From: an uncultured Candidatus Saccharibacteria bacterium
Lineage (GTDB): Bacteria; Patescibacteriota; Minisyncoccia; Phycocordibacterales; XYD1-FULL-46-19
NCBI GenBank assembly: GCA_964639285.1
Contig: CAZXCI010000004.1
Location: forward strand, 5,252-69,251
Direction: 5' to 3'
DNA: 64,000 bases
Shown: piece after piece, positions 5,403 through 22,739 of the stretch
Numbering within the stretch: the stretch's first letter is position 1
How the letters are laid out: each line of letters begins with the position of its first letter
The notes under the pieces: generated by a model
What the model saw: the letters and a program-made list of their open reading frames with translations, nothing else
Told to the model about the DNA's origin: nothing
Database searches by the model: none
Translations under genes and position numbers: made by a program

Positions 5403-5403
5403 A

Positions 5404-6156: not shown

Positions 6157-6166
6157 CAAATAAATA

Positions 6167-7273
6167 ATGGAAGAAAAATCTGGGAAAAACCTCAAATCAC
6201 ACCAATACTACTCAGACCTCTACGATCGCCACACTGTTGAAGAATGTCGGCGCTGGGTCAAAAAATCAGACGACAAAGAACAAATAAATAAAGGAGTTAA
6301 AGATCTCAAAATAACCCGAGCTAAGGCAAAAATCGTACTCAAGTGTGTTAACGAACTCTCGCTTTATTTCATTTCTGGTGAACGCTATGCCAATAAATCA
6401 ATGACAATTCGTGAATGGGAAGAAAGAGACAGAGCTCGAGATGAGTTACTAGAAAAGGCTAAAGCCCCCGATTCAATCGCTTGTTTATCTTGTGGTCGTC
6501 TAATGTTTGTTTCTTCTAAACACCTTGACCTTGGAGGTGTAAAAGGTCCCGAGCGTGTCCTCTTTATGTATGATTGCCCTCTTGGTCACTTACCTCGTCG
6601 AGCTTTCTATCACACAGGTGAAGAATGGCGTCGTCCTCCTCACGAATGTCCTAAATGTAAATCTGAATTTAAAAGAGAAACCGAGCGAGAAGAAGGAAAG
6701 AAAATTGTTATGAAATACGCCTGTCACAAATGTGGCTATGTCGAAAATGAAGAAATAGACCTAATTGATAAGCCTAAGGAAAAAGAGAAGATTGACCGAG
6801 ATTTTGCAAAAGATAGAGATCGTTTTTGTTTGTCTAAAGAGGAGGGTGAAAAATATCTTGAGGGAAAAGCGACATTAGAATCAATCGGACCCCTTCTTGA
6901 AGAATGGAAAGAAAGGGATGAGCACAAAGAAGAATACGAAGCTGTGTCTAAACTCAAGAAATTAAAAATAACCGAACTTGAGGAATTGTTAATTCCCACC
7001 TTAGAAAAAGCTGATTATACTAAGCTTCAATTCAAAGATCCTGAGATGAATAAAGATGTTTTTCTTCCTTTTACTGTTTACGACAAACAAGCCAATCGGA
7101 GTGATCGAGAAAGCGAGATCAAACTCAAAAAATTGCTCGATAAGACCCTTGAAGATACTAATTGGCGACTTATGAGTGACGGGGTAAATTATCGCTTAGG
7201 AATGCTTAGTGGACGGCTAAGGGGTTATGAAAGAGAAGAAGATATGCTGAAAATTGTATATCTTTCTAATTAA
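6167..7273 (+). CDS. hypothetical protein with two zinc-ribbon-like Cys pairs
   Basis: CLSCGRL...DCPLGH and ECPKCK...CHKCGY pairs; charged K/E-rich C-terminal half. Confidence 0.4.
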   Translation: MEEKSGKNLKSHQYYSDLYDRHTVEECRRWVKKSDDKEQINKGVKDLKITRAKAKIVLKCVNELSLYFISGERYANKSMTIREWEERDRARDELLEKAKAPDSIACLSCGRLMFVSSKHLDLGGVKGPERVLFMYDCPLGHLPRRAFYHTGEEWRRPPHECPKCKSEFKRETEREEGKKIVMKYACHKCGYVENEEIDLIDKPKEKEKIDRDFAKDRDRFCLSKEEGEKYLEGKATLESIGPLLEEWKERDEHKEEYEAVSKLKKLKITELEELLIPTLEKADYTKLQFKDPEMNKDVFLPFTVYDKQANRSDRESEIKLKKLLDKTLEDTNWRLMSDGVNYRLGMLSGRLRGYEREEDMLKIVYLSN

Positions 7274-7296
7274 AAATCATTATTTAAAAATAAAAT

Positions 7297-8001
7297 ATGG
7301 AAAATAAAAAAGAATTCCTCGGGACACTTAAACAGATTTCGCCAAGGCTTTTAGTTGACGAGAAAGACGAAAAAGAAATCCAAAACTTCTTTCTTATCCT
7401 TGGCCTTATCTTTAACGATTTAAAAGGTCTGGTGTTTTTTCAAAAATTTCTTGAAGAAAATTACCGGAAACCAAAGGAAGATGAGACGACCGAACATGCT
7501 GGGGAATACAATGGGCTAATGGCTCAAGCTGATAGACTACTAATCTCCACAGTTGGCGAATTTTACAAATTTATAGAAAAAAATAAATCTGTATTAAACA
7601 GCTACCCTTTTTTATTTATTATTAAAAAACTTAGCCCAAATATCAGAAATAAATGGAGTGACCTTGTTAATTTAGAGCATGGTTCAACCATTTTGTCGAA
7701 AATAGCAAAAATCAGATCAAATGTTGCCTTTCATTATGATCACCCGATGAAAGTATTAAGGAAAGGATTTATTGGTAGCTTCTTTTCAGAAAGAAAGAAT
7801 ATCGCTCAACATCTGAAAGCTTGCTATTCTCTTGGTGAAGATATGGAACATACTCGCTTTTATTTTTCAGATGCATCCGCTCAAGACTACGTCAATTCTT
7901 TAATCGGTGCTGAAGATAGGGCAAAAATTAAGGGATCTGTAGAAGACATGAACAACACGATTCAGGCTTTGCTAAGGGCATATTTGGAAAATCTAAAATA
8001 A
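7297..8001 (+). CDS. hypothetical all-alpha protein, possible HEPN-like Rx4-6H motif
   Basis: RSNVAFH matches Rx5H; last gene of the tight four-gene operon. Confidence 0.35.
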   Translation: MENKKEFLGTLKQISPRLLVDEKDEKEIQNFFLILGLIFNDLKGLVFFQKFLEENYRKPKEDETTEHAGEYNGLMAQADRLLISTVGEFYKFIEKNKSVLNSYPFLFIIKKLSPNIRNKWSDLVNLEHGSTILSKIAKIRSNVAFHYDHPMKVLRKGFIGSFFSERKNIAQHLKACYSLGEDMEHTRFYFSDASAQDYVNSLIGAEDRAKIKGSVEDMNNTIQALLRAYLENLK

Positions 8002-8014
8002 TCTTTAATTTGTT

Positions 8015-8049
8015 AAAAAGTGTCACTTTTGTCACTTTTTGCTAGAATG
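8015..8049. repeat. 35-bp direct repeat copy 1 (palindromic operator-like, AAAAGTGtCACTTTT plus GTCACTTTTT)
   Basis: Identical 35-mer aaaaagtgtcacttttgtcactttttgctagaatg at 8015-8049 and 19948-19982. Here it is followed by TATAAT. Confidence 0.85.
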
Positions 8050-8068
8050 TATAATATATTTAGCCATT

Positions 8069-8599
8069 ATGGTTTTAGATGACAATATAAAACATTATAA
8101 AAAGGAACTCGGGGATCTACCCTTGTGGTTAAAATATGCAGTCGCTATCGCCACTATTTTTGGAACCATATTTGGCGGTTGGGGTGTATATATAGTTATT
8201 AGTGATAAAAACAATAAAGATCGATTGTTAGACAGCACGACTGCAACATCCTCAATTCCAATAAACATAACGAGTATATTATCTATGGCTCTTCATAAAG
8301 ATACTGCAATGGAACAGAGAGATTTTTTAAATAAGTATGAGGATGTTAAAGTCTTTGTCGATGGATATTTCAAAGATATATTGAATTACGGCGAAAACTA
8401 CCAAGTGTTTATAGATTCTTCCCTTTTACCTTTCAGAAATATACCGATTGTGTGCTCCTTAGACAATTTAAGCGAAGATGAAAAAAGAGAGTTATTCCTA
8501 TTCAAAAAACGTGACAAAGTATTACTTAGAGGTGTATTCACAGGTGGTAATTACAATGGAATTGCATGGTACGTGAAAGAGTGTCGCGTAGAAAAATAG
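8069..8599 (+). CDS. small membrane protein (cassette between repeat A and repeat B)
   Basis: ORF track 8039..8599 begins at TTG inside the repeat; the first ATG is at 8069. Hydrophobic segment (YAVAIATIFGTIFGGWGVYIVI). Confidence 0.4.
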   Translation: MVLDDNIKHYKKELGDLPLWLKYAVAIATIFGTIFGGWGVYIVISDKNNKDRLLDSTTATSSIPINITSILSMALHKDTAMEQRDFLNKYEDVKVFVDGYFKDILNYGENYQVFIDSSLLPFRNIPIVCSLDNLSEDEKRELFLFKKRDKVLLRGVFTGGNYNGIAWYVKECRVEK

Positions 8600-8600
8600 A

Positions 8601-8614
8601 GGTGCTCGAGTTGC
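8601..8614. repeat. 14-bp direct repeat B copy 1 (ggtgctcgagttgc)
   Basis: Exact repeat of 19985-19998. Lies 2 nt after the cassette gene stop. Confidence 0.7.
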
Positions 8615-8801
8615 TTCACCAATGATTATAAATTACACTAAAAATAACCTTATGGGGCTTGACCGAGAAAGGTTCTAGCTCTAGTCGGCCAGCCAGCTTG
8701 AGCTAGCTCAAAGATAACTAGTTTGAAGACAAAAAACACTTTTTATTTCGAAGGTGTTTTTTGTTGTTTTATATTACAACAAACTATGCTATAATCTTTG
8801 T

Positions 8802-9008
8802 ATGAAAGATGATGCCAAAAAGTTGGGAGAAAATCTCAAAAAACTTAGGATCAAAAAAGATATTAGCCAAATAGAACTCGCTCGTATGTTGAGTGTTGAT
8901 CGATCTTTTGTGAGTAATATCGAGAATGGAAAAAATAATCCAACTCTTTCAACCATTACTAGCTTAGCCAAGGCGTTAGGTGTTTCAACTAACGAACTTT
9001 TAAAATAA
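8802..9008 (+). CDS. XRE-family HTH transcriptional regulator
   Basis: ISQIELARMLSVDRSFVSNIENGKNNPTLSTITSLAKALGVSTNEL is a classic Cro/C1 HTH; TATAAT lies 11 nt upstream. Confidence 0.75.
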   Translation: MKDDAKKLGENLKKLRIKKDISQIELARMLSVDRSFVSNIENGKNNPTLSTITSLAKALGVSTNELLK

Positions 9009-9009
9009 T

Positions 9010-10320
9010 ATGTCGTCATCAATAACAAACACCGGTGATAATACGCTTTCGTCAAACTTAAAGAGCATTTTGCCTAATTGCGATAAGGTAGATGCTTTGG
9101 TTGGATATTTTTACTTCTCTGGTTTTCGGGATTTACATAATGAACTAAAAGATAAACAAATTAGAATCTTGGTTGGAATGGATATTGATAAGAAAATTAT
9201 TGATAAAGTATCAACACTCAAAGATTTAAACCTAGACTCATATACAACAGATACAAAAACATCTTCTCGCTCTATTGCAAAGGATGATTACATTGAGAAC
9301 TTTTCAAGGATTTTTAACGACACAGATTTTTTTGATAATGACGAATCTCAGAAAGCTTTTGAGATATTTTTTTCGCAGGCAGACGAGACTAAAGAGTTAA
9401 ATATTTATAAAATCGAACACAAGATCTTAACACTAACGACTTGCGCGGTTATGGAAGATAAAAATAATTTAACCTCTTTTGAAATTGACGGTGTTAAATT
9501 TTCTCATTGGGAATTTAATTATCGAGACGGTTGGACAAATGACGCTTGGTTAGCGACGGCAGAAATTTCAGCTGAAAGTTTTTTGGATGCTTTAAATGAA
9601 TTAGCGAGAAAACTTTCAAAATTAATCTCTCGTATTTCTTTAATTTCCCAATCTTATATTGAATATATCAACGAACCATTTCTTATTCATAAAAAAGGGA
9701 GTGACGTATTTTTCTTCCGCTACGTAGCAGATGCTCATGTTGGAGGATTGATGTTTATGGAAAATGAACAAAAAGCTTTAAATCAACTTCTTAATAATAA
9801 AAACGTTCCAGAACCTTTTTATTATTATTGGAATGATGCAATCAACGCTTCTGGGTATTCAGCCAAATTACTTCTCATGTTTTCTGCGATTGAGTCACTT
9901 GTTAAAGATAATGGTAAAAAAAATTGGAATTTAACAAATGAAATATTAGGAAAAGATCTAGTTAAAGAATTGTTTGGGACGAAAGAAAATTCAAATACTG
10001 GACTTAGGCACAGACTTGTCCATGGAGAATATTTTGGAAATCTCGATCATGGGAAAAATTATCTGGAACTCGTTCACAATAAAGTAATATCTTACTTTAA
10101 TAAAAAAGTTTTAGACGAAAAATTAATACTAGAAAATATTGTTAATCCTCAGAGAAATTTGTTTGGAAATAAAGAACAAGAAAATTTCTTCTTGAAGGGT
10201 AAAGTCGAGCATAGAGATTTAAATCTGAAAGAAGTACTCAAAGATTTTGATGAAAACCGACCAATTTTACCCCAAAATTATGAAATTATTTATGACAAAA
10301 ATCTAGTGAATGTCTATTAA
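9010..10320 (+). CDS. hypothetical 436-aa protein with PLD-like N-terminal signature, co-operonic with the XRE regulator
   Basis: VDALVGYFYFSGFRDLHNELKDKQIRILVGMDID resembles the a.GYF..SGf..l...l....iRiLvG N-terminus of PLDc_2/NgoFVII-type nuclease domains; starts 1 nt after the XRE stop. Confidence 0.4.
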   Translation: MSSSITNTGDNTLSSNLKSILPNCDKVDALVGYFYFSGFRDLHNELKDKQIRILVGMDIDKKIIDKVSTLKDLNLDSYTTDTKTSSRSIAKDDYIENFSRIFNDTDFFDNDESQKAFEIFFSQADETKELNIYKIEHKILTLTTCAVMEDKNNLTSFEIDGVKFSHWEFNYRDGWTNDAWLATAEISAESFLDALNELARKLSKLISRISLISQSYIEYINEPFLIHKKGSDVFFFRYVADAHVGGLMFMENEQKALNQLLNNKNVPEPFYYYWNDAINASGYSAKLLLMFSAIESLVKDNGKKNWNLTNEILGKDLVKELFGTKENSNTGLRHRLVHGEYFGNLDHGKNYLELVHNKVISYFNKKVLDEKLILENIVNPQRNLFGNKEQENFFLKGKVEHRDLNLKEVLKDFDENRPILPQNYEIIYDKNLVNVY

Positions 10321-10361
10321 AAGCTTAGAAATTGCCATATTATTAAGCTACCAAAGCAAAA

Positions 10362-10392
10362 GGGCCTGCGCGGAATAAATCCTTGCAGGCCC
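10362..10392. terminator. bidirectional hairpin terminator between convergent genes
   Basis: GGGCCTGCgcggaataaatccttGCAGGCCC, 8-bp GC stem. Confidence 0.55.
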
Positions 10393-10396
10393 TGTG

Positions 10397-12073
10397 TTAG
10401 ATAGTTCTAAGCAACTTGCGTGCCTTCTGCTCGGCCATGGCGACATACTCGTGAAAGTCGTCGACTTTGTTTAATTTGTTGTCAGCGATGAGATAAGCGA
10501 AATCGATTCTTGCCTTCTCAAGGAAATCGCGGTCATGAGATACCAAGATCACGGTTCCCTTGTAACTCGATAGAACTTCTTCAAGTGCTTCGACAGCTTC
10601 GGCGTCAAGATGATTGGTTGGCTCATCAAGCACTAAAGCGTTAACCGACAACAGAGAGAATAGGCTGAGCAATAAGCGAGCACGGCCACCCGGACTAATC
10701 TCAGAGATTTTGCCTCGGATGTCTTTCTCTCCGAAGCCAAACCTCACTAGGGCGGCGAAAACTTCCTGATCGATTCGTCCCGTTCGCTCTTTGATAAAAG
10801 CGAGCAAAGTTTCTTCGCGAGAGAGTGTCTCGTGCTCTTGCATCATGTTGCCGATCTTGAGACCAGAACCAATTGAGACTTGACCAGAGATCGGGGCCAG
10901 TTTGCCCGTGATCGTCTTGAGGAGTGTTGACTTGCCACTGCCGTTAAGCCCAAGAAAACCGACTCGATTGCCGTAACTGATGGCCAAACTAATCGGTCCA
11001 ATTTCAAACCGACCAGGATAACCAGCAACTACTTGGTCAAGCGAGATATCCATCGGACTACCATTGCTGTAGGCTTCAAGCGAGATAGACAACGGTTCGT
11101 GATCAACGACTCTTTCCACTTTATCCATTCGTTCGATCCGCTTCTCAAGAACCTTGGCCACCTTACCGGACTTTGACGATTTGTCTTGCTTGAAACCGCG
11201 CAAGAACTTATCATTGTCGCTACCTTGCCAACGAGAACCGCGAGTTGCTGCCGCTTTTTTCTCTCTGGCTTGTTCGGTGAGTCGGCTTATTTCCTCCTGT
11301 TGTTGACGATACTGCTCTTTCTGTCGGCTACGATCTTTCGCTTTTCGTTCGAGATACTCACTATATGAGCCGTTGCTCACATTGAGCAATCGAGTTTGTC
11401 GATCAAGTTCGAAAACTCGATCGGTTACTCGATCTAAGAAGCGTCGATCGTGCGAGACGATGATGCAGGCCACATCAGACTTCAACAAAAAATCTTCCAA
11501 CCAAATCAAGGCTGGCAGATCCAAGTTGTTCGTCGGCTCGTCGAGCAGAAGCAGGTCGATGCCGGTTAGCAGGATGCCTATCAGAGCAACTTTGCTCTTT
11601 TGACCGCTAGACAGATCGGATAACGGCCGATCAAGTCCAACATTGTCCATACTGAAACCAGACATCATCACTTCGGCTCGATGTTTGAGTGAGTAGCCAT
11701 CGAGATGGTCATAACGCTCATGGACGTTGGCATAGTGATCGCTTATCGCTTTGTCACTCAAACCAGTTTCCAGTCGAACCAACTCTTCTTCCAGTGCGGC
11801 GATACCTGTCACCCGGTGCAGATACTGCCAAATCGTCTCGGTCCCAGCCATGCTGGTATCTTGGGGCATATAGCCAAGACAGGTGCCTCGACTAATTTCG
11901 ACTTGACCGCTCTCTGCTACATCCAAACCAGCGATAATCTTAAGCAGGGTTGTTTTACCAACCCCATTACTACCAACCAAAGCCACTCTTTGCCCACGTT
12001 CCAAGCTAAAGGAGACGTCGGAGAACACGACTTTAGTACCGTAGCTTTTGCTGATTTTCTTAACTTTTAGCAT
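10397..12073 (-). CDS. ABC-F family ATPase (EttA/ARE-like translation factor; two ABC domains, no TM)
   Basis: Two Walker A motifs (GSNGVGKTT, GLNGSGKST), two LSGGQ-type signatures, charged ~85-aa interdomain linker; GC richer than the host. Confidence 0.75.
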   Translation of the reverse strand: MLKVKKISKSYGTKVVFSDVSFSLERGQRVALVGSNGVGKTTLLKIIAGLDVAESGQVEISRGTCLGYMPQDTSMAGTETIWQYLHRVTGIAALEEELVRLETGLSDKAISDHYANVHERYDHLDGYSLKHRAEVMMSGFSMDNVGLDRPLSDLSSGQKSKVALIGILLTGIDLLLLDEPTNNLDLPALIWLEDFLLKSDVACIIVSHDRRFLDRVTDRVFELDRQTRLLNVSNGSYSEYLERKAKDRSRQKEQYRQQQEEISRLTEQAREKKAAATRGSRWQGSDNDKFLRGFKQDKSSKSGKVAKVLEKRIERMDKVERVVDHEPLSISLEAYSNGSPMDISLDQVVAGYPGRFEIGPISLAISYGNRVGFLGLNGSGKSTLLKTITGKLAPISGQVSIGSGLKIGNMMQEHETLSREETLLAFIKERTGRIDQEVFAALVRFGFGEKDIRGKISEISPGGRARLLLSLFSLLSVNALVLDEPTNHLDAEAVEALEEVLSSYKGTVILVSHDRDFLEKARIDFAYLIADNKLNKVDDFHEYVAMAEQKARKLLRTI

Positions 12074-12191
12074 AGTTCTTAGTCTCCTTTCCCTTGTTGT
12101 TAGGCCTAATTGCCTAGAATTATAGCATTTACGAAGAACACCCCAAAGTGATTCTACTCTAATTTACCATAATGTAAATACTATAAAACTA

Positions 12192-12218
12192 AATCCCCGA
12201 GTAGTCCAGAGCTACTCG
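12192..12218 (-). terminator. rho-independent terminator of the rSAM-MTAP operon
   Basis: CCCCGAGTAGtccagagCTACTCGGGG, a perfect 10-bp stem followed by a U-run on the minus strand. Confidence 0.6.
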
Positions 12219-12240
12219 GGGATGGGAACAAAGGGATAAT

Positions 12241-13137
12241 TCAGCTTTCATAGTAGGCTTTGATGGAGGTTTCGGCGCATCGACACTGCATCCGACTGGA
12301 CATCAGATCGATAAAACCGAGAAGTAACTGCTTGGTTCTGGCGATATCGTCTCGAAAGACGGTCAGCACTGCTTCCCGATTCGATGTATTAAAAAGGTCC
12401 ATGGTTAAGGCCTTACCAACACCGACATCATAGTCGGTGATCGCGGCAATCGCTCCGTAGCACAACCCCAATTCGCGGGCAAAGTAACATTCGGGATATT
12501 GAGTCATGTTGACCAGATCCCAACCATTCTTCGCCAGCCACTCGCTTTCTGCTCGTGTCGAGAAGCGAGGACCTTGGATCACCGCAACTGTCCCAGTCGG
12601 GGTGACAGCTAACGGAATTCTCCTTGCCAGCTCGATTAAAAGCATTCGCATTTCGGTACAATAGGGGTTAGCCATCGGTAGGTGCAGAAACGAGTGGTCC
12701 GTCTCGAAATGATCGTCTCGACCCCACGTCAGATTGACGAATTGATCAAGAACAACCAAACTTCCCGGGACTAACTCCTTTTGCAAACTACCGGCGATAC
12801 AAGTCGCAACAATGTGACGAACACCGATTTCCTTCAATGCCCACAAATTGGCTTTGTAGGGCACGCGATGCGGTGGCCAGTTGTGCTTTTCTCCGTGTCT
12901 TGGTAGAAAAGCGACAACTTTTCCGGCATATTCTCCGATCAAGATTTGATCAGACGTTGGACCGTAAGGGGTGACAACATCAACCTTCTCAATCGGATTT
13001 AACTCGGAAAAACTGCATAGGCCGGAACCGCCGATGATCGCTAGCTCGGGTCTTTGGCCCGAAGCCAGTTTAACACTTGAACTTGGACCAGATGAGCTCA
13101 TTGAACACCTCCTGCGTAAAAACGCGACTAGATTCAT
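12241..13137 (-). CDS. mtnP: 5'-methylthioadenosine/purine nucleoside phosphorylase (MtnP/MTAP family)
   Basis: ELAIIGGSGL N-terminal PNP motif and family-like length; likely start at the internal MSSSGP (13101). Overlaps the rSAM gene end. Confidence 0.6.
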   Translation of the reverse strand: MNLVAFLRRRCSMSSSGPSSSVKLASGQRPELAIIGGSGLCSFSELNPIEKVDVVTPYGPTSDQILIGEYAGKVVAFLPRHGEKHNWPPHRVPYKANLWALKEIGVRHIVATCIAGSLQKELVPGSLVVLDQFVNLTWGRDDHFETDHSFLHLPMANPYCTEMRMLLIELARRIPLAVTPTGTVAVIQGPRFSTRAESEWLAKNGWDLVNMTQYPECYFARELGLCYGAIAAITDYDVGVGKALTMDLFNTSNREAVLTVFRDDIARTKQLLLGFIDLMSSRMQCRCAETSIKAYYES

Positions 13138-14395
13138 CCATCGCCATAAGGTTGCCAGTTAACTCGCGACAACCCCAGGCGCAACCAGCTCCACACAAAC
13201 TCTTGAAATCATCCTCACGGAAACCGGGGTGATAGAGTGGCAGACGTTTCCGCCACTCAGTGACAACTGACGTGTTCCAGATTCGGAAATCCGAGGCCAA
13301 CACTTGAACAGCACCAAGCTCTTCTCTCGCGAATGGACAATTGGACACCTGGCCGTTGGCCAAGACAACCAATTGATTACCGTAGCAAGTACAATCAACA
13401 GGGAAGAAATCTTGACCATCAAAGGCCTCAATCTTTTTCTCCATCTGGTAATCGCCATGATGCTTAGCGTTGGCGATTACCGCTTGGGCCGCTTGGTGAT
13501 AATAACGATCCAGACCATCAACTCCGACAATCTCAAGCAGAGCTTTCCCTTTTAGGAAATTGAAGCCGAATTTCTCGACTCCGAGTCCTTCAAAGAACTG
13601 GCTGTAACTCTCGAGCTGATCGATGTTGTGTGGGGTGATCGTTACCGAAGCGAAGGTCTTAACCCTATGATTAACAAGGGCATTGATCGCTTCAACCGTT
13701 CGCTCATAGGTGCCTTTCCCACCAGCATCGGGACGATAGATATCATTGATCTCGGGTGGGCCATCAAGCCCCACCGCTACCAACAAATCATATTCTCGAC
13801 ATAGACGCAGGAAATTATCGTTTACCAACGAGCCGTTGGTTGTCACCATCAGGAAGATACGCGAAGTCGGCAAAGCACCATTCTCGCGCAAACCTTTCAA
13901 GTAGACAAGGACATCCTCCATCACTTCGCAGTTCAGGAGCGGTTCGCCTCCATAGAAAATGACATAGTAATCAATCTCCGGGTCAGCGACTTCCCTCAGA
14001 TGATCCAGCCAAAGATTAACTCCGGCGATCGCGTTGTCTCGACTTAAACATTTTTCCGCTTGGGACAAAGAGGCTTTAGCCGGACAGTAACGACAACCAA
14101 AATTGCATCTTTGAGAAAGCATGAGGTACAAGATTACAGGTTGATTCAGCTTCTTTAACAGTTTAGCCGAGACCAACCGATACTCCGCCTCATCCTCTTC
14201 CACTGAGTTGATAACCAATTTCTTGGCCAGCAACCCATCCAGTATCTCTTGAGGAATATCTCCTATCGAACCAGTTGTGAGCCCCACCCATTCGCCATCA
14301 GGCAAATATATAGGACTCGGGTGAAGGTCGTGAAAGAGGGCCACCAAGCCACTCTTCCGGCGAACTCTCAGATAACGCGACCATTGTAGTGACAT
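13070..14395 (-). CDS. radical SAM/SPASM-domain enzyme (anSME/peptide-maturase type)
   Basis: CNFGCRYC matches CxxxCxxC; C-terminal Cys cluster (CTCYGN...NCPF, CGAGCAWGC). Start set at MSLQWS (14395), preceded by AGGAGGG; the longer track ORF has an implausible Arg/Pro-rich extension. Confidence 0.7.
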   Translation of the reverse strand: MSLQWSRYLRVRRKSGLVALFHDLHPSPIYLPDGEWVGLTTGSIGDIPQEILDGLLAKKLVINSVEEDEAEYRLVSAKLLKKLNQPVILYLMLSQRCNFGCRYCPAKASLSQAEKCLSRDNAIAGVNLWLDHLREVADPEIDYYVIFYGGEPLLNCEVMEDVLVYLKGLRENGALPTSRIFLMVTTNGSLVNDNFLRLCREYDLLVAVGLDGPPEINDIYRPDAGGKGTYERTVEAINALVNHRVKTFASVTITPHNIDQLESYSQFFEGLGVEKFGFNFLKGKALLEIVGVDGLDRYYHQAAQAVIANAKHHGDYQMEKKIEAFDGQDFFPVDCTCYGNQLVVLANGQVSNCPFAREELGAVQVLASDFRIWNTSVVTEWRKRLPLYHPGFREDDFKSLCGAGCAWGCRELTGNLMAMDESSRVFTQEVFNELIWSKFKC

Positions 14396-14502
14396 AAGCC
14401 CTCCTTTCTGTTTTGTCGCATCTATATTAAAAGCCCCCGCCAACACAGACGTCATTGTCCGTATCAGCAAAGGGCTTTGTTTTCGCGGCGCGGTGCCCGC
14501 GC

Positions 14503-14679
14503 TTACTCGGCGGTCTGTTTCAGGGCCATCCACTGGTCGTGTGTCAGCTTGACGTGGCCACCGTGGTCGTCCTTGATGTGGACCTCGCCGGGCGTGTTGA
14601 AGTCGACGGTCGGGCAACAACCCTGAACACCGCACAGCGTAACAACGCCCTTTTTCACCATACTCGTGGGAGCATCCAT
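14503..14679 (-). CDS. 58-aa Cys-rich small protein, candidate precursor/substrate peptide of the adjacent rSAM
   Basis: MDAPTSMVKKGVVTLCGVQGCCPTVDFNTPGEVHIKDDHGGHVKLTHDQWMALKQTAE; GGAGG lies 9 nt upstream of the second ATG; same strand, 107 nt upstream of the rSAM gene. Confidence 0.45.
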   Translation of the reverse strand: MDAPTSMVKKGVVTLCGVQGCCPTVDFNTPGEVHIKDDHGGHVKLTHDQWMALKQTAE

Positions 14680-14801
14680 GATACTTCTTACCTCCATATT
14701 ATAGGGAACATTGCCATATACCTTTTCTCCACATAGAGAAAGGTAATGACTCTGGTTAAAGGATAGTATGAATAAAGAGAGGTGTCAAGCTCTCATAGAT
14801 A

Positions 14802-15185
14802 TTATCTCCGGTCAAAATAGTCTTGTACCTTAGCCGCTAAAGCCATCGGCATTAGTTCGGTTTTGCCCCAGAATTCAGTCGCTCCCAGTGCCATAAATTT
14901 TTCTTTAACCTCTTTCTTGTCAAGATTAGTAAAAACAATGACTGGGATATCTTTAGTTTCAGGATCGACTTTCAGTCTTTTTAATACTTCTTCACCATCG
15001 ACATCTTCCATGACAATATCGAGAACGATAACTTTGGGATGCCATCTTTTAGCTTGTTGGATACCAACTTCACCACCATTGGCCATAACACTAGGAATTT
15101 TCATTAAGTCAAAAGCTGATTTGTATAAAAACATCTGATCCGAATCATCCTCAATCATTAATACTTGTTTTATTTCTTCGGCCAT
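14802..15185 (-). CDS. stand-alone response regulator receiver (CheY-like REC) protein
   Basis: VLMIEDD...KVIVLDIVMEDVDG...IPVIVFTN receiver motifs; no output domain. Confidence 0.7.
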   Translation of the reverse strand: MAEEIKQVLMIEDDSDQMFLYKSAFDLMKIPSVMANGGEVGIQQAKRWHPKVIVLDIVMEDVDGEEVLKRLKVDPETKDIPVIVFTNLDKKEVKEKFMALGATEFWGKTELMPMALAAKVQDYFDRR

Positions 15186-15216
15186 AATATTTATTTATAG
15201 TGAGTTTATTGAACTG

Positions 15217-17376
15217 TTATTTAGTTTTTGGGATTGTAATTGTAAATTCAGTACCTTTACCTTCTTCACTAGTGAATGTAATTGTTCCACCAGAGTGAGC
15301 CTCGATGATTTCTTTAGTGATAAAAAGACCTAAGCCAGAACCATCAGTGTACATATCGACAGCATTTTTTGCCCGTTCAAATTTGCCAAACATCCTCGCT
15401 TGATCATCTTTCGGGATACCGACACCCGTATCTTTAACCTTAATGATAATACTTTGGGGATTTTCGTCCAGTAGCACTTCTACCTTACCCTCTTTGGTGT
15501 ACTTCAGCGCGTTATCAACCAGATTGAAGCAGGCCTGTTCCAAGTAATCGGGATCAGAATTGATTTGCGGATTGGCCAGATTAGGAGTAAAGATTAATTG
15601 TAGCTTCTTCTCATTGGCAAAGGTTTGATTGTCAGCAATGACATCAGTCAATATTTTGTTAAGCTCAACGGGTACGATCCTTTTCTCCACAAAACTAAAT
15701 TTCTCTGTATCAAATTCCGAAGCTTGAAGAATGTCGCGAATGATTTGGCTAATCTTAAGCGACTTTTGATAGATATTATCAATCAACTTATTCTGCGTCT
15801 CGACTGGCATTTTTTGGACCGAACCCTCTTTGAACATTGAGATAGTGCCAGAAATAACAGAGATTGGAGTTTTAAGTTGGTGAGAAGCGATGTCCAAAAA
15901 TTCTGACCTCATCGCTAACAATTTCTTTAAGTGTTCCGCTTGCTCTTCAAGCACCTTGGTCTTATCTTGCAAGCTCATTGTCTGCTCGTTGACTTTTTGT
16001 TTGAGTGTTTTGTTGAAATCCTTAACTTCCTTGTATAGTTCGGCGTTATCAATCGCGATCGCGGCTTGATTTGAGAGTGTCATTAGCAACTCAAGGTCTT
16101 CAACTGTAAATGGATCACCGATCACTTTTGGGCCTAAAATAATTAAGCCAATCAAACGCTCGTTACTAACCATGGGCAAACAAATTGTTGCCCCTAAACT
16201 CTTAACTTGCTCATAAACAGCACTAAAAATTTCTCGCTGTTCTTTTAATCTCTCGTCGTTAACTAAAATACTCAATTCTTCAAGTACCACCGGGCGTTGA
16301 TTAGTTTGCAGGTATTTTATAAGTGGGTCTTTTTTTACTGAACGGTCATTCTTCTGAAATAAATTAATCTCTACTCGGGTGATGCCAAGAGATTCTCTGA
16401 TTGTTGTCGAAACCAAATCATTAATTTTAGACAAGTCGGTATAGTGAGTTAATTGACCAGAGACCCGATTAATAGTTTCTTGGTAATTGTAGAGCGAAAA
16501 AAATAAATATTTATTGGCTAATTTTTCAATCCACTTGGAAGAATACTGGAAAAGTGTGACAAAAAGAACCGCAATGACAATTCCAAGGAGGAAAGATTTA
16601 TTAGAATAAGCTCCACCAAGTAGATTATTTTCAAACCAGAGAATAACGTAATAGGCGACATAAGCAATAACACTCGCTCCGGCAAAAATAAAAATCTTTC
16701 GAGCGACGATGCGAATGTCCATTAAGCGATAGCGGATAATTGAATAAGCCACGGTGGCAACATAAGCTGAAGTAAAGATATTAAAAATCGGCGGAATAGG
16801 GATATAATACCAGAGAAAATAATTAGTCGAACCGCCAGCAAAACCAAAAATCATACCTAGTAAAACATATTTAATTTGAAGTCGTTGCAAGCCTTCAGCA
16901 GAACGATAACGTTGATAAAGCAGATAGGAAGAATAGATGACGTAGGCTAACCAAATCGGCAAGAAGATATTAAAGATTGGACCAGCAATTGGCCAGAAAG
17001 CAAAGCCGAGAAGTGGTTCGACATGACTAATAAACAAAGGAGTAGCATTAAATAGAAGGAAGATAACAAAAAGAAAATAACTAAGAACCAGAAATATCTT
17101 TTGTTTTGGGATATTTAAAAAACGAAGGACAAAGTGTAAATAAGTAACCGGAATAAAAATTGCACCCGCCATTAATACTCGGCACCAAAATAGGGCTGAA
17201 TCAGGATTATTAGCAATCTGCCAGAGATAATAAAAGAAACTCCAAAAAGCGATAGTAAAAGCAAAGGCCGAAAAAGCCTGACTCGTTCGGTCTTTTTTAT
17301 TCTTAACTAAAACAAAAAGCCCAAGTCCCAAACTCGTTAAAAAATTAAATAGTGCCGAGAAAGCGTAAAAAGTCAT
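15217..17376 (-). CDS. sensor histidine kinase (multi-TM N-terminus, GAF, HisKA, HATPase_c)
   Basis: H-box SHQLKTPIS, G-boxes (DTGVGIP, GSGLGLFI), ~7 N-terminal hydrophobic helices. Confidence 0.75.
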   Translation of the reverse strand: MTFYAFSALFNFLTSLGLGLFVLVKNKKDRTSQAFSAFAFTIAFWSFFYYLWQIANNPDSALFWCRVLMAGAIFIPVTYLHFVLRFLNIPKQKIFLVLSYFLFVIFLLFNATPLFISHVEPLLGFAFWPIAGPIFNIFLPIWLAYVIYSSYLLYQRYRSAEGLQRLQIKYVLLGMIFGFAGGSTNYFLWYYIPIPPIFNIFTSAYVATVAYSIIRYRLMDIRIVARKIFIFAGASVIAYVAYYVILWFENNLLGGAYSNKSFLLGIVIAVLFVTLFQYSSKWIEKLANKYLFFSLYNYQETINRVSGQLTHYTDLSKINDLVSTTIRESLGITRVEINLFQKNDRSVKKDPLIKYLQTNQRPVVLEELSILVNDERLKEQREIFSAVYEQVKSLGATICLPMVSNERLIGLIILGPKVIGDPFTVEDLELLMTLSNQAAIAIDNAELYKEVKDFNKTLKQKVNEQTMSLQDKTKVLEEQAEHLKKLLAMRSEFLDIASHQLKTPISVISGTISMFKEGSVQKMPVETQNKLIDNIYQKSLKISQIIRDILQASEFDTEKFSFVEKRIVPVELNKILTDVIADNQTFANEKKLQLIFTPNLANPQINSDPDYLEQACFNLVDNALKYTKEGKVEVLLDENPQSIIIKVKDTGVGIPKDDQARMFGKFERAKNAVDMYTDGSGLGLFITKEIIEAHSGGTITFTSEEGKGTEFTITIPKTK

Positions 17377-17461
17377 TTGATATTTTTGAGAAAGAAAAAT
17401 CGCCCCGACTCAGTGTTTATTATAATACCAAGTCCGGGCGACGTCAGGCTCTTTCTGTTGA

Positions 17462-18508
17462 TTAAGCCTTCTTGTGAGCGACAACGATACCGTGGATCAT
17501 AAGGGGCTCGTAAATCAGGCGGAAATCATCGAAGTAGGACTGCTCGATGACGTCAGCGAGTTCTCGTGGCGACCGATAGATCATTGGCCAGTTGATAACC
17601 CACTTGAGGAAGTGCTGTTCGAAGTTCGGAGCAATGTTGCAGGTCAGATACAGACCGCCAGGCATTAGTGACTGCCTGATTTGCGACGACAGATGGATCG
17701 CCGTTTCTTGTGGTAGGTAGTCGAGCAGGCCCAACATCTCTACCACATGCGGTTTGAAGTCACGAGCAAAGTCCAAATTCTTGAGTGCGTTCGCTTGCAA
17801 GGTTTGGATTCGATCACGAACTCCATACTGTTCTGCTAATTGCTCAGCGTAAGCCAGTGCGGCCGGATTGATGTCGACCAGAAGCACTTTGACCGTGATG
17901 CCTTGTCGCTTGAGACGTGACACCACTTTAATCACGGCTTCGGCCGATCCGCAAGCCAAGGACATAATCCGCACTTCCGGCTCATTCGCGAACTGCACCA
18001 GCGCCCGACGGACCTCCATGGTCACAACTTTCAAACGGTTACGCACCGCTTGAGCGTTGACCATACCGATCCAGAAATCATCTAGTAATCCGCCAATTGT
18101 GCGTTTTCCACCAAATTGGTGGTTGTAGATGATGTCAAGAGCCTTCCAACCGGCCGCCGTTCCCTTGATCTGCATCAATTCCGATCCAAGACCATCAAAC
18201 CAGAGAGTATTGATGGACGGACCAGGCAGACCGAGGGCTTGGCGCAATTGTTTCTTGGCCATCACCCAGAGGGTGAGTAACCAAGAGATTGGCAGGGTTA
18301 GCACATACGGCCAGTAGCGCTTCTCGTACACAGAACGAGATGTCCCGACAGTATGCCCAACCGTTCCCGCTTCTTCGGCCAACCAATTGGCTTCCGAGGC
18401 AATTTCGATAGTCAAACCTTGTCCGTTCATTGCTATTCTCTCCTTTCTCAGGTTGTTTTTCACAAAGACCAAGTTATTGTTTGATTCCATTTTCCATGGA
18501 ACCACCAA
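17462..18508 (-). CDS. class I SAM-dependent methyltransferase-like protein
   Basis: IMSLACGSAEAV...VKVLLVDINPAAL is a Rossmann-type motif I / post I; GC-rich; start may be the internal MNGQ. Confidence 0.45.
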   Translation of the reverse strand: MVVPWKMESNNNLVFVKNNLRKERIAMNGQGLTIEIASEANWLAEEAGTVGHTVGTSRSVYEKRYWPYVLTLPISWLLTLWVMAKKQLRQALGLPGPSINTLWFDGLGSELMQIKGTAAGWKALDIIYNHQFGGKRTIGGLLDDFWIGMVNAQAVRNRLKVVTMEVRRALVQFANEPEVRIMSLACGSAEAVIKVVSRLKRQGITVKVLLVDINPAALAYAEQLAEQYGVRDRIQTLQANALKNLDFARDFKPHVVEMLGLLDYLPQETAIHLSSQIRQSLMPGGLYLTCNIAPNFEQHFLKWVINWPMIYRSPRELADVIEQSYFDDFRLIYEPLMIHGIVVAHKKA

Positions 18509-18591
18509 ATATAAGACTAGTCAAGTTTTTGTGCACAAAACTAAAGGGGGCCTGGATTTCTCCACACCCCCCGTTTCTCCTTTCTCTTGTT

Positions 18592-19806
18592 CTAGTTCAT
18601 TTTGCCACCGAAGTAATAGGTCACTCCGGCCGACACAATCCCCACATCAACTACGTTACGACCTGGCGCCAATATCCCGCAATCTGGTTCAGTCTCTCGA
18701 CTGATTTGACCGTAGAGCAGAGCGAGATCAATCCCCAAGTTGCCTTGGTGATTCTTCCAGCCAACGCCGACTGAACCGCAGTACCCCATACCATCAGGAA
18801 TGATCGGGACGGTCTTCGCTTTGGGCACTGATGGCCAGAGACCAGCCAGACCAAAACGCAGTTTCCAGTTCTCATTGATCGTCCTCTCAACACCAAGATG
18901 AAGGCTAGTATTGTTGCTCCAGTTCATCGTTTGCGTGATAGTGATCCAGTCAAAGTCAAACTTGATCTTGTCTAGCCCAGAGTAGTCATAGTGGTTGAAG
19001 TCGAGAGCAATGAGCCACTTGTCGGCTGGCTTGATAGCGACACCCAGACCCAGACGACCTGGAAAACCAATTGAGGTTTTTCCACGAAGTTCGCCCAGAC
19101 CTAAGCCAAGAACAGAGACATCGCTCTGGCAATCCATCTCCACCTTGCGTTTTGAGGCATAGCTGACGCCAAAGGCGAGCCAGTCATACGGTTCATAACG
19201 AAGGCCTAAGCGATACCCTAAACCCCAACCATCAGCTTTGTTTCTGAGAAAGACACCATCGATCGGAAAACCAAGTTGATCGAAGACGGCATTCTCAATC
19301 ATCTGACCGTAAACGACATCGAGGCCGATTCCGACAGACAGTTCGTCGCTAATCTGCCAGGCAATGGTTGGTGTGAAGTTAATCGAAGCGAGCAGGCTCT
19401 TTTGATACTTCAAGCCTTGGTACTCGACTCCGAGACCATCACTTGGGTACAGAGACAGACCCAGCGTCAGTTTGTCATCTAACTGATGAGTTAACGCAAA
19501 CATCGGCATCGGGAACAGTCCTAGCTCCGACTCGTGTTCAGTGTTGCTCCCAGATTCTCGAAAGTGAGCCTTGGTCACAATCGTGTCCAAGTCAAACTCC
19601 AAGAAGTCAGGAGCTTGGCTGATGTTGGCGACGTTGTGGTAAAAGGCGGCACCGTCACCAGAAACCGCGTTATGAGCACCACCCATACCGAGAGCCCGAG
19701 GACTCAGACTACCACCAGGACGGATGTTGCCACCCGCCCAAACGTTGTTAGACATAACCATGACCGACAGGGCCACGATTATGGCCAGTTTCCACCATTT
19801 TTTCAT
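18592..19806 (-). CDS. FadL/TodX-like outer-membrane beta-barrel transporter
   Basis: Signal peptide MKKWWKLAIIVALSVMVMSNNVWA; GMGGAHNAVSGDGAAFYHNVANIS matches the FadL N-terminal signature (G.GGA..A..D..A.f.NPA); alternating beta-strand pattern; GC-rich. Confidence 0.5.
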   Translation of the reverse strand: MKKWWKLAIIVALSVMVMSNNVWAGGNIRPGGSLSPRALGMGGAHNAVSGDGAAFYHNVANISQAPDFLEFDLDTIVTKAHFRESGSNTEHESELGLFPMPMFALTHQLDDKLTLGLSLYPSDGLGVEYQGLKYQKSLLASINFTPTIAWQISDELSVGIGLDVVYGQMIENAVFDQLGFPIDGVFLRNKADGWGLGYRLGLRYEPYDWLAFGVSYASKRKVEMDCQSDVSVLGLGLGELRGKTSIGFPGRLGLGVAIKPADKWLIALDFNHYDYSGLDKIKFDFDWITITQTMNWSNNTSLHLGVERTINENWKLRFGLAGLWPSVPKAKTVPIIPDGMGYCGSVGVGWKNHQGNLGIDLALLYGQISRETEPDCGILAPGRNVVDVGIVSAGVTYYFGGKMN

Positions 19807-19947
19807 GGCCGTTCTCCTTCTGCTAAGTTAATGTGAGTTTGTTGACAAAGGTTAGTATTCCTTTATCAGGATACCATTGATTGAGAGAATAGTCAAATTT
19901 TGTTTTTTTATAAAAAATTGAGAGGGTTGGATAGGGTCAGAAACATC

Positions 19948-19982
19948 AAAAAGTGTCACTTTTGTCACTTTTTGCTAGAATG
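19948..19982. repeat. 35-bp direct repeat copy 2
   Basis: Identical to 8015-8049. Followed after 2 bp by repeat B (19985-19998); lies between the divergent FadL-like and ECF sigma genes. Confidence 0.85.
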
Positions 19983-19984
19983 GG

Positions 19985-19998
19985 GGTGCTCGAGTTGC
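19985..19998. repeat. 14-bp direct repeat B copy 2
   Basis: ggtgctcgagttgc is identical to 8601-8614. The downstream ~30 bp is degenerately similar (TGATTAyAAAaATTA). Confidence 0.7.
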
Positions 19999-20110
19999 GT
20001 CGAGGTTGATTACAAAAATTAGCTTTGAAAAAAGTTCGAATTTCATCCAATAAACACAGCAAGAGTCAGCGCGTTATCGGCGCGACCAGAGAGCGTTATT
20101 TTTAGAATTT

Positions 20111-20695
20111 ATGAATAAGGAAGACACCATTCTTGTTCAGGAAGCCAAAGCTGATACAAGGCAATATGAGGCCTTGTATAAAAAATACGCAGACAAAGTG
20201 TTTAACTACTTCTGGTACCGTACTGGCCACGATAGAGATCTCTCAGAAGACTTGATGCAAGAGACATTTTTACGTGCTTTTCAAAATCTTTCTAAATTTA
20301 AAATCAGAGGGTATTCGTATCTCACTTATCTTCTCACCATTGCTCGCCATCTCCTCATTGATCATTATCGAAAACCAAACTCTCTTCCGATTGAAGATGC
20401 AGAAAATATTCCATATGAAATTACTGAGGATATTGATAGAAAATCTGATGCTGAAGCACTTTGGCATGCCATTCAAGACTTGCCATCTTCTAACAGGGAT
20501 GTTTTGCTCATGCGTTATCAGGACGAAAAATCAATCAAAGATATAGCAACAATTACTGAGTCAACAGAAAATGCTGTAAAACTCAACCTTTCTCGCACTC
20601 GTAAAAAACTAGCAGCCCACCCCCACCTCAAGGATATGGTTGGATTTGGTCAGAAGAAACGAACGTATACAAAACCACGATTTTTAAATAAATGA
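20111..20695 (+). CDS. RNA polymerase ECF-type sigma-70 factor
   Basis: Region 2 (LMQETFLRAFQNL...YLLTIARHLLIDHYRK) and region 4 HTH (IKDIATITESTENAVKLNLSRTRKKL). Confidence 0.7.
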   Translation: MNKEDTILVQEAKADTRQYEALYKKYADKVFNYFWYRTGHDRDLSEDLMQETFLRAFQNLSKFKIRGYSYLTYLLTIARHLLIDHYRKPNSLPIEDAENIPYEITEDIDRKSDAEALWHAIQDLPSSNRDVLLMRYQDEKSIKDIATITESTENAVKLNLSRTRKKLAAHPHLKDMVGFGQKKRTYTKPRFLNK

Positions 20696-20727
20696 CACCT
20701 TTTTGATGTCCTTTCGTTTATTAAAAC

Positions 20728-21069
20728 ATGAAAGACCGTCAAATTATCTACATAATCGGGGCTCTTTTGGTGGCAAGCCTCACTGCAAACATATACTTCT
20801 GGAATAAACCAAAAGAGTTTTCTGTTTCAGGATTAAATAAAGTTGCCACAACTTCTGAGGAGGTTTCTATTGACTCGCCCTACGGATTTCGAAGCGAGGC
20901 TGTAACTGTGTATGAGAATGGGAAAGCTAAGACGTATTCCACTACAACTCCTATTACAGAAAAAGATTTGGAGCAAATGCGAAAACAGACCGAAGCCCGG
21001 TTTAAGGCTATGGATGATTATTTCCGCGAACAAGAGAAATTCTTTAGGTCATTCTGGTACAGCTTCTGA
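20728..21069 (+). CDS. small membrane protein, possible anti-sigma factor
   Basis: Immediately downstream of the ECF sigma gene; single N-terminal TM; no zinc-binding anti-sigma motif seen. Confidence 0.3.
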   Translation: MKDRQIIYIIGALLVASLTANIYFWNKPKEFSVSGLNKVATTSEEVSIDSPYGFRSEAVTVYENGKAKTYSTTTPITEKDLEQMRKQTEARFKAMDDYFREQEKFFRSFWYSF

Positions 21070-21402
21070 TGACACCTTTTTCGGCAAGATACGTTAAATA
21101 GAGTGTAGACGGAGTGGTCGACCGTCGCTAAGCAGAAAATAATGCATGACTTTAGTGAAGCAAGTAATGAGAGGTGCTTGGCTAAAGAAATTCATTCGTT
21201 CGATTTCTGATGCCACTTAGCATCTCAAATACAATTGAATAGTGTTTAGATAAACTCGCAAAAGCGAGAATAAGAGAATTAAGATTCTCTAAAGCTAAGG
21301 GGAAACCTTGTAGGTATCTTTAGTTTGCGTGTAATGAAGTTCCAATTCCTTGTGTAAGGTCGAATGCAAGGGGACATTACTAGAAGTTAATCGCAAAGAA
21401 GT

Positions 21403-21903: not shown

Positions 21904-21907
21904 ACAT

Positions 21908-21932
21908 AAAACCGCCTCAAAGGCGGTTTTAT
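21908..21932 (+). terminator. rho-independent terminator
   Basis: AAACCGCCtcaaaGGCGGTTTTatgttt. Confidence 0.7.
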
Positions 21933-22331
21933 GTTTGTAATGAAATAATCTTATTTCTTAATATTATTTTGCTTTTAATTGATCCGAGGAATAACCTTTT
22001 CTCTTCAATTGACCCCTGAGTCAGAACATACACGACGGTGCAAGCCTGCCTCTGGCTGAAAAGGCACGTTGAGTTCAAACCCGAACACATCCCCGAACTG
22101 GAAGTAGCTCTAAGGGAACGCCTCAAGGAAAAACTTGTCGCCGTTGACGCCTAAGCCCCGCCCGCAAGGGACAGCAAGCACGCTGTCATTTTGCGAGGCG
22201 GGTTTGTTGTTTTCAATGAGTAAAAGATGGGCTAAAATAAAAGAAGTTGCTTTTTCCTTGCAACATTATGGTTCTAACTTCGTTTAAGAGACCCAGCCCA
22301 ATTTTTTAATTATCAATTAATTTTATATTTT

Positions 22332-22730: not shown

Positions 22731-22739
22731 GAATAAAAT

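Follow-up and report, generated by a model that had tools for sequence, protein, structure and literature searches.

Exact repeats in a Saccharibacteria contig probably belong to a dispersed promoter/leader module of the candidate phyla radiation

The repeats and the module they belong to

The stretch of DNA studied here (hereafter, the window) comprises 64,000 nucleotides of contig CAZXCI010000004.1 from an uncultured Candidatus Saccharibacteria bacterium. It holds two exact copies of a 35-nt sequence, AAAAAGTGTCACTTTTGTCACTTTTTGCTAGAATG, which lie 11.9 kb apart and which the initial annotation took for the att-type borders of a 12-kb island. Our comparison with other genomes suggests instead that both copies are members of a dispersed family of portable, non-coding promoter/leader modules and not scars of recombination, an interpretation that we consider likely. 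Each module is made up of a near-invariant box, to which the 35-mer corresponds, and of a longer conserved sequence, here called the body. Judging from sequence comparison, this box-body module appears to be a new and widely distributed non-coding element associated with the candidate phyla radiation (CPR, or Patescibacteria), and its box would explain the repeats. No description of it was found in the literature on the sequence itself or on CPR integrons, cassettes, promoters and non-coding RNAs.

The 35-mer has no further match in the window at three mismatches or fewer (shuffled sequences: 0 expected). A second exact repeat, the 14-mer GGTGCTCGAGTTGC, occurs at 8601-8614 and 19985-19998 and corresponds to the start of the body. 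Beyond it the likeness degenerates (76% identity over 38 nt between 8595-8632 and 19979-20016). The distance from 35-mer to 14-mer is 2 nt in the second copy and 551 nt (8050-8600) in the first. All these matches had been correctly located in the initial annotation, which had also rightly described the segment splitting copy 1 as a carrier of TATAAT and of an open reading frame (ORF) of 176 aa. The ORF is a real gene, since homologues are found in other assemblies at 99, 88, 68 and 34% identity. Its product has one hydrophobic helix by eye and matched no Pfam, PADLOC or PHROG family. The edges of the insert carry the micro-repeat AATG (8046-8049) and AATAG (8595-8599). The features of both copies are collected in Table 1.

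Table 1 Features of the two module copies and of the adjoining genes in the window
Feature	Positions	Strand	Details
Box, copy 1	8015-8049	+	AAAAA, 23-nt core (8020-8042), TAGAATG
Predicted promoter, copy 1	8020-8048	+	-35 GTGTCA 8020-8025; 17-nt spacer; extended -10 TGcTAGAAT 8040-8048
Insert between box and body	8050-8600	+	551 bp; second -10-like element TATAAT 8050-8055; ORF 8069-8599
Body, copy 1 (intact)	8601-8712	+	nhmmer with the family profile: 8603-8695, E = 6.7e-15; in order, A-box GGTGCTCGAGTTGC (the 14-mer), -10-like ATGATTATAA, CCTTATGGGGC, hairpin, B-box CTCTAGTCGGCCAGCC, core, palindrome
Body hairpin, copy 1	8659-8678		TTGACC-GAGAAA-GGTTCTAG
Body core, copy 1	8690-8706		CAGCCAGCTTGAGCTAG; overlaps the perfect palindrome TTGAGC-TA-GCTCAA 8698-8711
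Terminator-like hairpin and T-run	8728-8765	+	intrinsic type; closes the box-ORF-body unit
XRE gene with its own promoter	8768-9008	+	TTTATA-16-TGcTATAAT (8768-8795)
Box, copy 2	19948-19982	+	predicted promoter GTGTCA 19953-19958, TAGAAT 19976-19981
Body, copy 2 (decayed)	19985-20056	+	several deletions; 74 nt vs about 110 nt
ECF sigma factor gene	20111-20695	+

Both repeats belong to a large family in other genomes. The 23-nt core of the box, GTGTCACTTTTGTCACTTTTTGC, was found exactly at 34 loci in about 30 genomes (GTDB species representatives). The hosts are mostly Patescibacteria (Paceibacteria, Saccharibacteria, Nomurabacteria, Gracilibacteria and Parcubacteria), together with one metagenome-assembled genome (MAG) of Dysgonomonas and one of Flavobacteriales; several genomes have more than one copy, and one Paceibacteria MAG and the Dysgonomonas MAG carry three each. 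In about 24 of the 34 cases, a body begins 1-11 nt downstream of the core. When the body alone was used as the query, without regard to the box, 24 metagenome loci were returned, and their bodies are only about 60-75% alike. About 12 of them have a box directly upstream, its initial ~20 nt being conserved and its last few variable, and about 13 bodies stand directly after a stop codon; in some of the latter, a box precedes the body at a distance of 673 or 1265 nt. The initial annotation had proposed a search for further copies of the 35-mer as a check on its island; the core turns out to be common at many unrelated loci, which goes against that idea.

The copies in Bacteroidota (three in the Dysgonomonas MAG, L013, L019 and L022, and L023 in the Flavobacteriales MAG; loci outside the window are designated by L numbers) stand directly before protein genes and always without a body. 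The presence of the exact 23-mer in these bacteria could be due to horizontal transfer of the box or to bin contamination. A phage origin of the module was rejected, as the 30-mer, the 23-mer and the body pattern had 0 matches in IMG/VR.

The body measures about 100-120 nt. Its consensus begins with an A-box, GC(T/A)CGAGA.GCGTCGA, followed by a TG.TATAAT-like element and an A-rich stretch, and continues further 3' with CCTTAC.GGGC, TTGACC-N6-GGTTCTA and a B-box, CTCGAGA.GGCC.GCC; a subset of bodies has in addition a palindrome and a third box. The pattern of the 3' core is CAGCC-N-TTGAGCTAGCTCAA. An outer inverted repeat (GCTCRAG/CTYGAGC) is present only in a subset of bodies, without conservation of AAC/GTT. 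Inside each unit, the A, B and C boxes behave as direct repeats that change together, a pattern more in keeping with repeated sites for protein binding or recombination than with a simple helix. As in copy 1, terminators follow the body in L008, L035, L038, L031 and L044.

The decayed second copy is closest to the unit of L017, with which its initial 21 body nucleotides match; counted from the alignment and including the 35-mer, the initial 56 nt are about 96% identical. The exact identity of the two window boxes (35/35) presumably reflects strong purifying selection on the box throughout the family, combined with a shared subfamily origin, and would not stem from an insertion of the intervening DNA. 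L063 and L064 keep an exact 35/36-mer inside a surrounding module that is only 93% and 89% identical, respectively, an indication that the box itself is under selection.

Gene slots and neighbouring genes

The arrangement of copy 1, with a gene between box and body, recurs at other loci. Including the window, box-ORF-body units were found at six genome loci (with box-to-body offsets of 583 nt in the window, 711 in L015, 685 in L012, 534 in L036, 809 in L007 and 249 in L037) and in metagenomes (offset of 673 nt in L041/42 and of 1265 nt in L044/61). The ORFs that occupy the slot are mutually unrelated across loci. The proposal of the initial annotation that 35-mer and 14-mer form one unit, into which a gene cassette was inserted in copy 1, thus holds, and the insertion is characteristic of the whole family. 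Where a body follows an ORF, 0-25 nt separate it from the stop codon, and this codon is often part of a conserved ATAAGG just 5' of the A-box. Some loci form short arrays: L009 and L030 have three bodies each, split by one or two co-oriented ORFs, and L046 and L053 have two each. The orientation of the units is always that of the neighbouring ORFs.

The surroundings of the module were surveyed with Pfam on 150 neighbouring ORFs, recurrent families being the best 25 of 119. The neighbours are heterogeneous accessory genes such as methyltransferases, restriction-modification systems and hydrolases. Large serine recombinases are present in 6 of the 34 genome loci: in L007 and L024 the gene is divergent from the box and adjacent to it, L005 has a fragment, and in L016, L023 and L031 it lies elsewhere in the fetched locus. 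The tyrosine recombinase family (Phage_integrase) is not among the best 25 of the 119 families. A pair made up of a ParB-methylase and a terminase-small-subunit-like helix-turn-helix (HTH) protein occurs at 6 loci and in the window (1482-3135). A conserved partner protein was sought by clustering of the neighbouring ORFs and by Pfam on the same 150 of them, and none was found, the ParB-methylase/terminase-like pair and the serine recombinases being occasional companions.

At L009 (1383-2378), in a single-cell CPR genome, a reverse transcriptase of the type found in diversity-generating retroelements (with the motifs LGNLTSQ and YADD) lies directly upstream of the box of the three-body array. 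A link between such retroelements and the module was rejected, since the three bodies of L009 differ at all base types and not at adenines alone.

Strain variants and the island interpretation

Four contigs of the same sample series as the window (L067-L070) make it possible to follow the repeats in close relatives. From position 8690 rightwards, L068, L069 and L070 match the window at 99.99-100% identity (L068 through 20068), and L067 matches it at 99.97% in two blocks, 8690-16037 and 21346-25639. The left flank of L067, before 8690, is made up of genes for an N6 methylase, an SNF2/ResIII helicase, DUF2779, Mrr and a glyoxalase, and L068 has another flank, with a 247-aa ORF that has AGACCTAGACGGGT on both sides. 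L069 and L070 begin exactly at 8690, as contigs are expected to do at a branch in the assembly graph. The window, L067 and L068 thus have three left flanks, each of which ends in its own diverged body-like sequence, and all three are identical from CAGCC (8690) onwards. Two further loci, L063 and L064, share with the window a 234-aa gene, the box, the 176-aa gene and the body (from about 7292 to 8694-8706), surrounded by unrelated DNA on both sides. All mapped ends of homology fall at body coordinates 89-105, the switch among window, L067 and L068 being at 89.

These data are difficult to reconcile with the island of the initial annotation, in which the 35-mers would be attL and attR, or their remnants, of a ~12-kb element integrated site-specifically into a promoter region. 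Exact direct repeats 11.9 kb apart are indeed unexpected by chance, GC content is heterogeneous inside the interval and mobile-type genes are near (the ParB-methylase and terminase-like pair). Yet the strain breakpoints lie at 8690, 16037/21346 and 20057 and never at the 35-mers, the segment 8690-20068 is kept at 99.97-100% in strains with another left flank, and none of the strain variants compared lacks 8050-19947, the empty allele that the annotation had suggested looking for. The repeats recur at unrelated loci of about 30 genomes, and L063 and L064 have the 234-aa gene, box, 176-aa gene and body without the rest of the interval. No recombinase was found by Pfam in any ORF of at least 100 aa in 8015-19998, which encodes an XRE/controller-like HTH protein, a 436-aa orphan, an ABC-F ATPase, a PNP-family phosphorylase, a radical-SAM protein, a response regulator, a 7TM-GAF histidine kinase, a methyltransferase and a FadL-type protein. 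Composition does not follow the repeats either: against a baseline of about 44% GC, copy 1 lies inside a low-GC block of about 3.1-10.3 kb, the shifts are at about 3.1 kb and 10.35 kb, and the genes of 10.4-19.8 kb are slightly GC-richer. We therefore consider an integrated element highly improbable.

The XRE/436-aa pair and the GC-richer genes, which had been interpreted as foreign cargo, are 99.97-100% identical in strains whose left flank differs, and the whole series through FadL is therefore backbone. The initial annotation had left the choice between att-site remnants and a duplicated regulatory module; the former can be abandoned, and the latter comes close to the truth. The '12-kb island' should accordingly not be annotated, and the real variable region ends at 8690.

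In L067 (SRR8925803), 16038-21345 is missing, a deletion of 5.3 kb with an overlap of about 11 nt at the joint (L067 17018-17028). It takes away the N-terminal part of the histidine kinase, the methyltransferase, FadL, box copy 2, the ECF sigma gene and a 113-aa gene, and the truncated kinase gene now adjoins the HSP20 gene.

The position of the variable border inside the body raises another possibility, namely that box and body are the expression and recombination sites of an integron-like platform for cassette exchange. ORFs would enter the slot between a box and its body or the space from one body to the next, and the 3' core (CAGCC with TTGAGC-TA-GCTCAA) would be the crossover, served by an adjacent large serine recombinase or by a host enzyme. 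This hypothesis would add to the promoter/leader interpretation rather than replace it, and we hold it to be doubtful. It accounts for the three alleles of one population (window, L067 and L068), with a different ORF and body on the left and identity from 8690, and for the halt of the module shared with L063 and L064 at 8694-8706, in line with all homology ends at body 89-105; still, homologous recombination between related elements also leaves breakpoints where a conserved segment ends. The co-oriented ORF and body arrays of L009, L030, L046 and L053 resemble cassette arrays, although most arrays have only 1-3 cassettes. In about half of the cases the body lies within 0-25 nt of a stop codon, often inside ATAAGG, the 247-aa ORF of L068 is bordered twice by AGACCTAGACGGGT, the direct repeats formed by the A, B and C boxes change together in each unit, and the neighbours are typical accessory cargo. 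The serine recombinases that L007 and L024 encode next to the box could supply the enzyme, but no recombinase is consistently linked (serine 6/34 loci; tyrosine not in the recurrent families). Moreover, neither a circular cassette nor an empty/filled pair in an identical background was seen, the two window copies being at different loci, and the body has no AAC/GTT core. An attC-like hairpin was also rejected: single-stranded DNA folds of both strands of two bodies gave z = -0.57 to +0.27.

The most far-reaching form of this idea, that box and body constitute an undescribed gene-cassette capture-and-expression system of Patescibacteria, analogous to integrons, with the box as promoter, the ~17-bp body core as crossover and a recombinase other than IntI, seems unlikely to us. 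If cassette exchange were true, a major part of bacterial diversity would have a new means of shuffling genes that does not involve integrons, and a capture system would allow genome-reduced episymbionts to shuffle defence and accessory genes.

Possible functions of the module

We return to the interpretation as a promoter/leader module that we favor. The core of copy 1 (8020-8042) holds two tandem TGTCAC half-sites, and GTGTCA-17-TAGAAT with an upstream TG was called as a sigma-70-type promoter at both window copies, in agreement with the operator-like architecture ascribed to the 35-mer in the initial annotation. Sigma-54, ECF-type and Bacteroidetes promoter consensus sequences were compared by eye and rejected, their spacings not fitting the box. 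As the comparison of loci shows, the module consists of a near-invariant box with two tandem TGTCAC-TTTT half-sites, followed in the window subfamily by TAGAAT, and of the conserved body, often closed by an intrinsic terminator. In that subfamily the box would act as a sigma-70-type promoter, GTGTCA-17-TGcTAGAAT. Since the tandem half-sites overlap the -35 element and the spacer, an operator for a direct-repeat-binding protein is suggested, and the box is probably also the binding site of a putative regulator of this type.

The two window copies would differ in what they transcribe. The box of copy 1 would drive the 176-aa ORF, and the body would be a 3' trailer reaching to the terminator at 8728-8765. 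The box of copy 2, 129 nt upstream of the start codon of the extracytoplasmic function (ECF) sigma gene, would drive the ECF sigma operon, with the decayed body as leader; transcripts of this gene probably come from box copy 2 and run across that body.

A variant unit lies at L002 4521-4650, directly after an HSP20 terminator. In its box, GTGTCGCTTTTGTCGC, the two half-sites have undergone the same A-to-G change in concert (GTGTCGCTTTTGTCGCTTTTGG). This change fits either a tandem protein-binding site or a mini-hairpin in which G-U pairs are preserved, the two being equally compatible with it.

Most of the 'empty' units have a conserved inverted repeat, A(A)GT(G/T)ACA-N5-6-TGT(A/C)AC, ~20-25 nt upstream of the box (for instance L008, L011, L014, L025, L029, L047 and L060); it is not present in the window copies. 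As it uses the same half-site, inverted repeat and box together make up four TGTNAC sites, in the layout of an operator cluster or of iterons.

Several points weigh against a promoter and leader. Many loci in which the box sits on a body have no -10 element after the box, a -10-like hexamer being found 6-9 nt upstream of it; in units without TAGAAT, transcripts may begin with the box, which might then act at the RNA level, for example as a 5' hairpin, rather than as the promoter. No cognate regulator was identified among the heterogeneous neighbours. RNAalifold finds no consensus fold of the body and recovers only an invariant 5-bp mini-hairpin in the box (GUG-U-CA/UG-U-CAC), one short body hairpin shows some covariation (4-9 double changes), and the RNA folds of the body have ordinary energies (z-scores of -1.5 to +1.0). 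Finally, recent gene conversion between the window copies could be an alternative source of their 35/35 identity.

The hexamer upstream of the box, found in most 'empty' units, would set the start of transcription at the first G of the box, as would suit a stand-alone small RNA (sRNA). In that case, box and body would form an sRNA gene of ~130-190 nt carried by CPR mobile elements, the box would be its conserved 5' end (a hairpin or a protein handle), the CNCGAGA boxes would be seed or protein-binding motifs, and bodies preceded by an ORF would be 3'-UTR-derived versions. This seems possible, if on the less probable side. The terminators after many bodies, the constant orientation with respect to neighbouring ORFs and a hairpin, TTGACC-N6-GGTTCTAA, with G-U pairs and some compensatory change are all compatible with it, as is the concerted change of L002, which keeps the mini-hairpin of the box as G-U pairs and which equally suits a tandem protein-binding site. 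The absence of a consensus fold, the weak covariation and the unexceptional folding energies speak against an sRNA, and so does the occurrence of the box directly before protein genes with a -10 element right behind it. Rfam 15 had no match at the gathering threshold for the module of the window and 10 loci, nor even at E <= 10 for 7950-8800.

Other identities of the module were also tried and rejected. A known RNA family was discarded because Rfam 15 gave only noise on the module. A conserved RNA fold was sought with alifold, single-sequence folds and covariation scans (column-pair and mutual-information scans on 24, 34 and 57 sequences), which together back only the one short hairpin. The likeness of some segments to tRNA, tmRNA, 5S RNA, RNase P or signal recognition particle RNA (GGTTCGA-like, GAAAGTCCG-like and CAGCCAAG) was not borne out by ARAGORN and Rfam, which call nothing, and there is no cloverleaf. 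A small protein encoded in the body, for which one frame looks open in some members, was rejected from the alignments on account of 1-nt indels, of in-frame stops in L034 and L021 and of second-codon-position variation. Neither is the module a miniature inverted-repeat transposable element or a repeat derived from an insertion sequence (IS): the unit is asymmetric, the alignments have no terminal inverted repeat or target-site duplication, and no transposase family recurs nearby.

Other features of the window

The XRE gene lies just beyond the terminator of copy 1. Its region (8768-9008) is identical in L067-L070, and the gene belongs to the constant backbone, outside the box-ORF-body unit. 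Its start is probably the ATG at 8793, which, with TGcTATAAT at 8778-8786, would give a leaderless mRNA. In PADLOC, the XRE protein (8754-10320 region) matches restriction-modification controller (C) proteins (E = 1e-14). The sole family match of the 436-aa protein co-transcribed with it is a weak N-terminal one to a PHROG; this protein could be a controller-regulated nuclease or defence gene product.

To the left of copy 1, 3212-8001 holds low-GC (31-38%) orphan genes, including a Schlafen/AlbA_2 protein (4230-5402). It resembles a strain-specific defence island, the counterpart of which in L067 has the methylase, the SNF2 helicase, DUF2779 and the Mrr-type gene. Near the left end of the window, a match to the LOOT RNA (Rfam RF03000) is found at 253-376 on the + strand (68.4 bits for a gathering threshold of 46.4) and adjoins the terminase-small-subunit-like and ParB-methylase genes. 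The genes of the window backbone, such as RNase J, an LVIVD repeat protein, MurJ and TsaD, are compatible with a CPR bacterium.

On the right, the ECF sigma gene, the 113-aa gene and HSP20 (20057-21936) have counterparts of 98-99% identity in L002 and L003. To the left of 20057 these two loci have no 35-mer. Body copy 2 ends at the junction with them, and its place is there occupied by the 3' end of a tRNA-Gln(CTG) (L002 2533-2604, L003 503-574) that ends exactly at the left junction, the remaining flanks being unrelated. There is no tRNA-Gln in the 64 kb of the window. Junction 20057 lies about 10 nt past the decayed-body equivalent of the copy 1 junction site. Between the HSP20 and DUF2177 genes, a GC-rich non-coding segment (22040-22225) ends in a hairpin and T-run, ccccgcccgcaaggg ... 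gcgaggcgggtttgttgtttt; this segment resembles a structured RNA or a leader that has escaped annotation, and no Rfam match was obtained at 22040-22225.

Comparison with known systems

CPR bacteria have tiny genomes with few recognisable regulators, and almost no promoters, sRNAs or mobile-element machinery have been characterised in them. A near-invariant box of ~20 nt in Saccharibacteria, Paceibacteria, Gracilibacteria and their relatives is thus an unusually clean handle on their transcription control, the more so as it is coupled to a body at which accessory and defence genes repeatedly enter and close strains differ.

Some response regulators of the OmpR/PhoB type bind direct-repeat operators such as the Pho box, CTGTCAT-N4-CTGTCAT, which replaces the -35 element. 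By analogy, the two tandem TGTCA(C/T) half-sites of the box, with an A/T-rich tract between them and overlapping the -35, may be a lead to the kind of regulator involved. The period differs, however (9 bp instead of 10-11 bp), and no cognate response regulator is linked to the module.

The REP/BIME, Correia and ERIC elements are short non-coding sequences that stand after stop codons, bring promoter- or terminator-like signals and contribute to genome mosaicism. The module is likewise short and non-coding, occurs in few copies and after stop codons, carries regulatory signals and is associated with mosaicism. Unlike these elements, it has no terminal inverted repeats or target-site duplication, is present in 1-3 copies per genome, is asymmetric and much longer, and extends over several phylum-level lineages; it is not a REP element.

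The integron platform combines a Pc promoter and attI site with cassettes that end in attC (PMC2727003, PMC5027507). The box-body module is similar in its promoter-proximal slot, in co-oriented ORFs each with a site of ~100 nt at the start of which the stop codon often lies, in its short arrays, in boundaries at the 3' end of the site and in the heterogeneous accessory cargo. It differs in that no IntI-type recombinase (among the best 25 of 119 families of the neighbouring ORFs), no RYYYAAC/GTTRRRY core and no stable imperfect single-stranded hairpin were found, in the strong conservation of the site interior across classes, and in the many cassettes that apparently have their own -10. Identity with integrons was therefore rejected: co-oriented arrays are present, and the defining IntI, AAC/GTT core and attC hairpin are not.

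The closest parallel is with reused or 'mobile' promoters, highly similar promoters that precede non-homologous genes in one genome or in different ones (PMC3575422). The 23-35-nt box stands in the same manner before the 176-aa ORF, the ECF sigma operon and the body itself, and at other loci before at least eight unrelated ORFs, and it spans different phylum-level lineages. In contrast to mobile promoters, it is paired with a body, which an ORF can displace downstream and which marks strain junctions, and no transposase or IS is attached to it. With near-identical predicted promoters before non-homologous genes, the module seems, at the level of sequence, to behave like a reused or mobile promoter.

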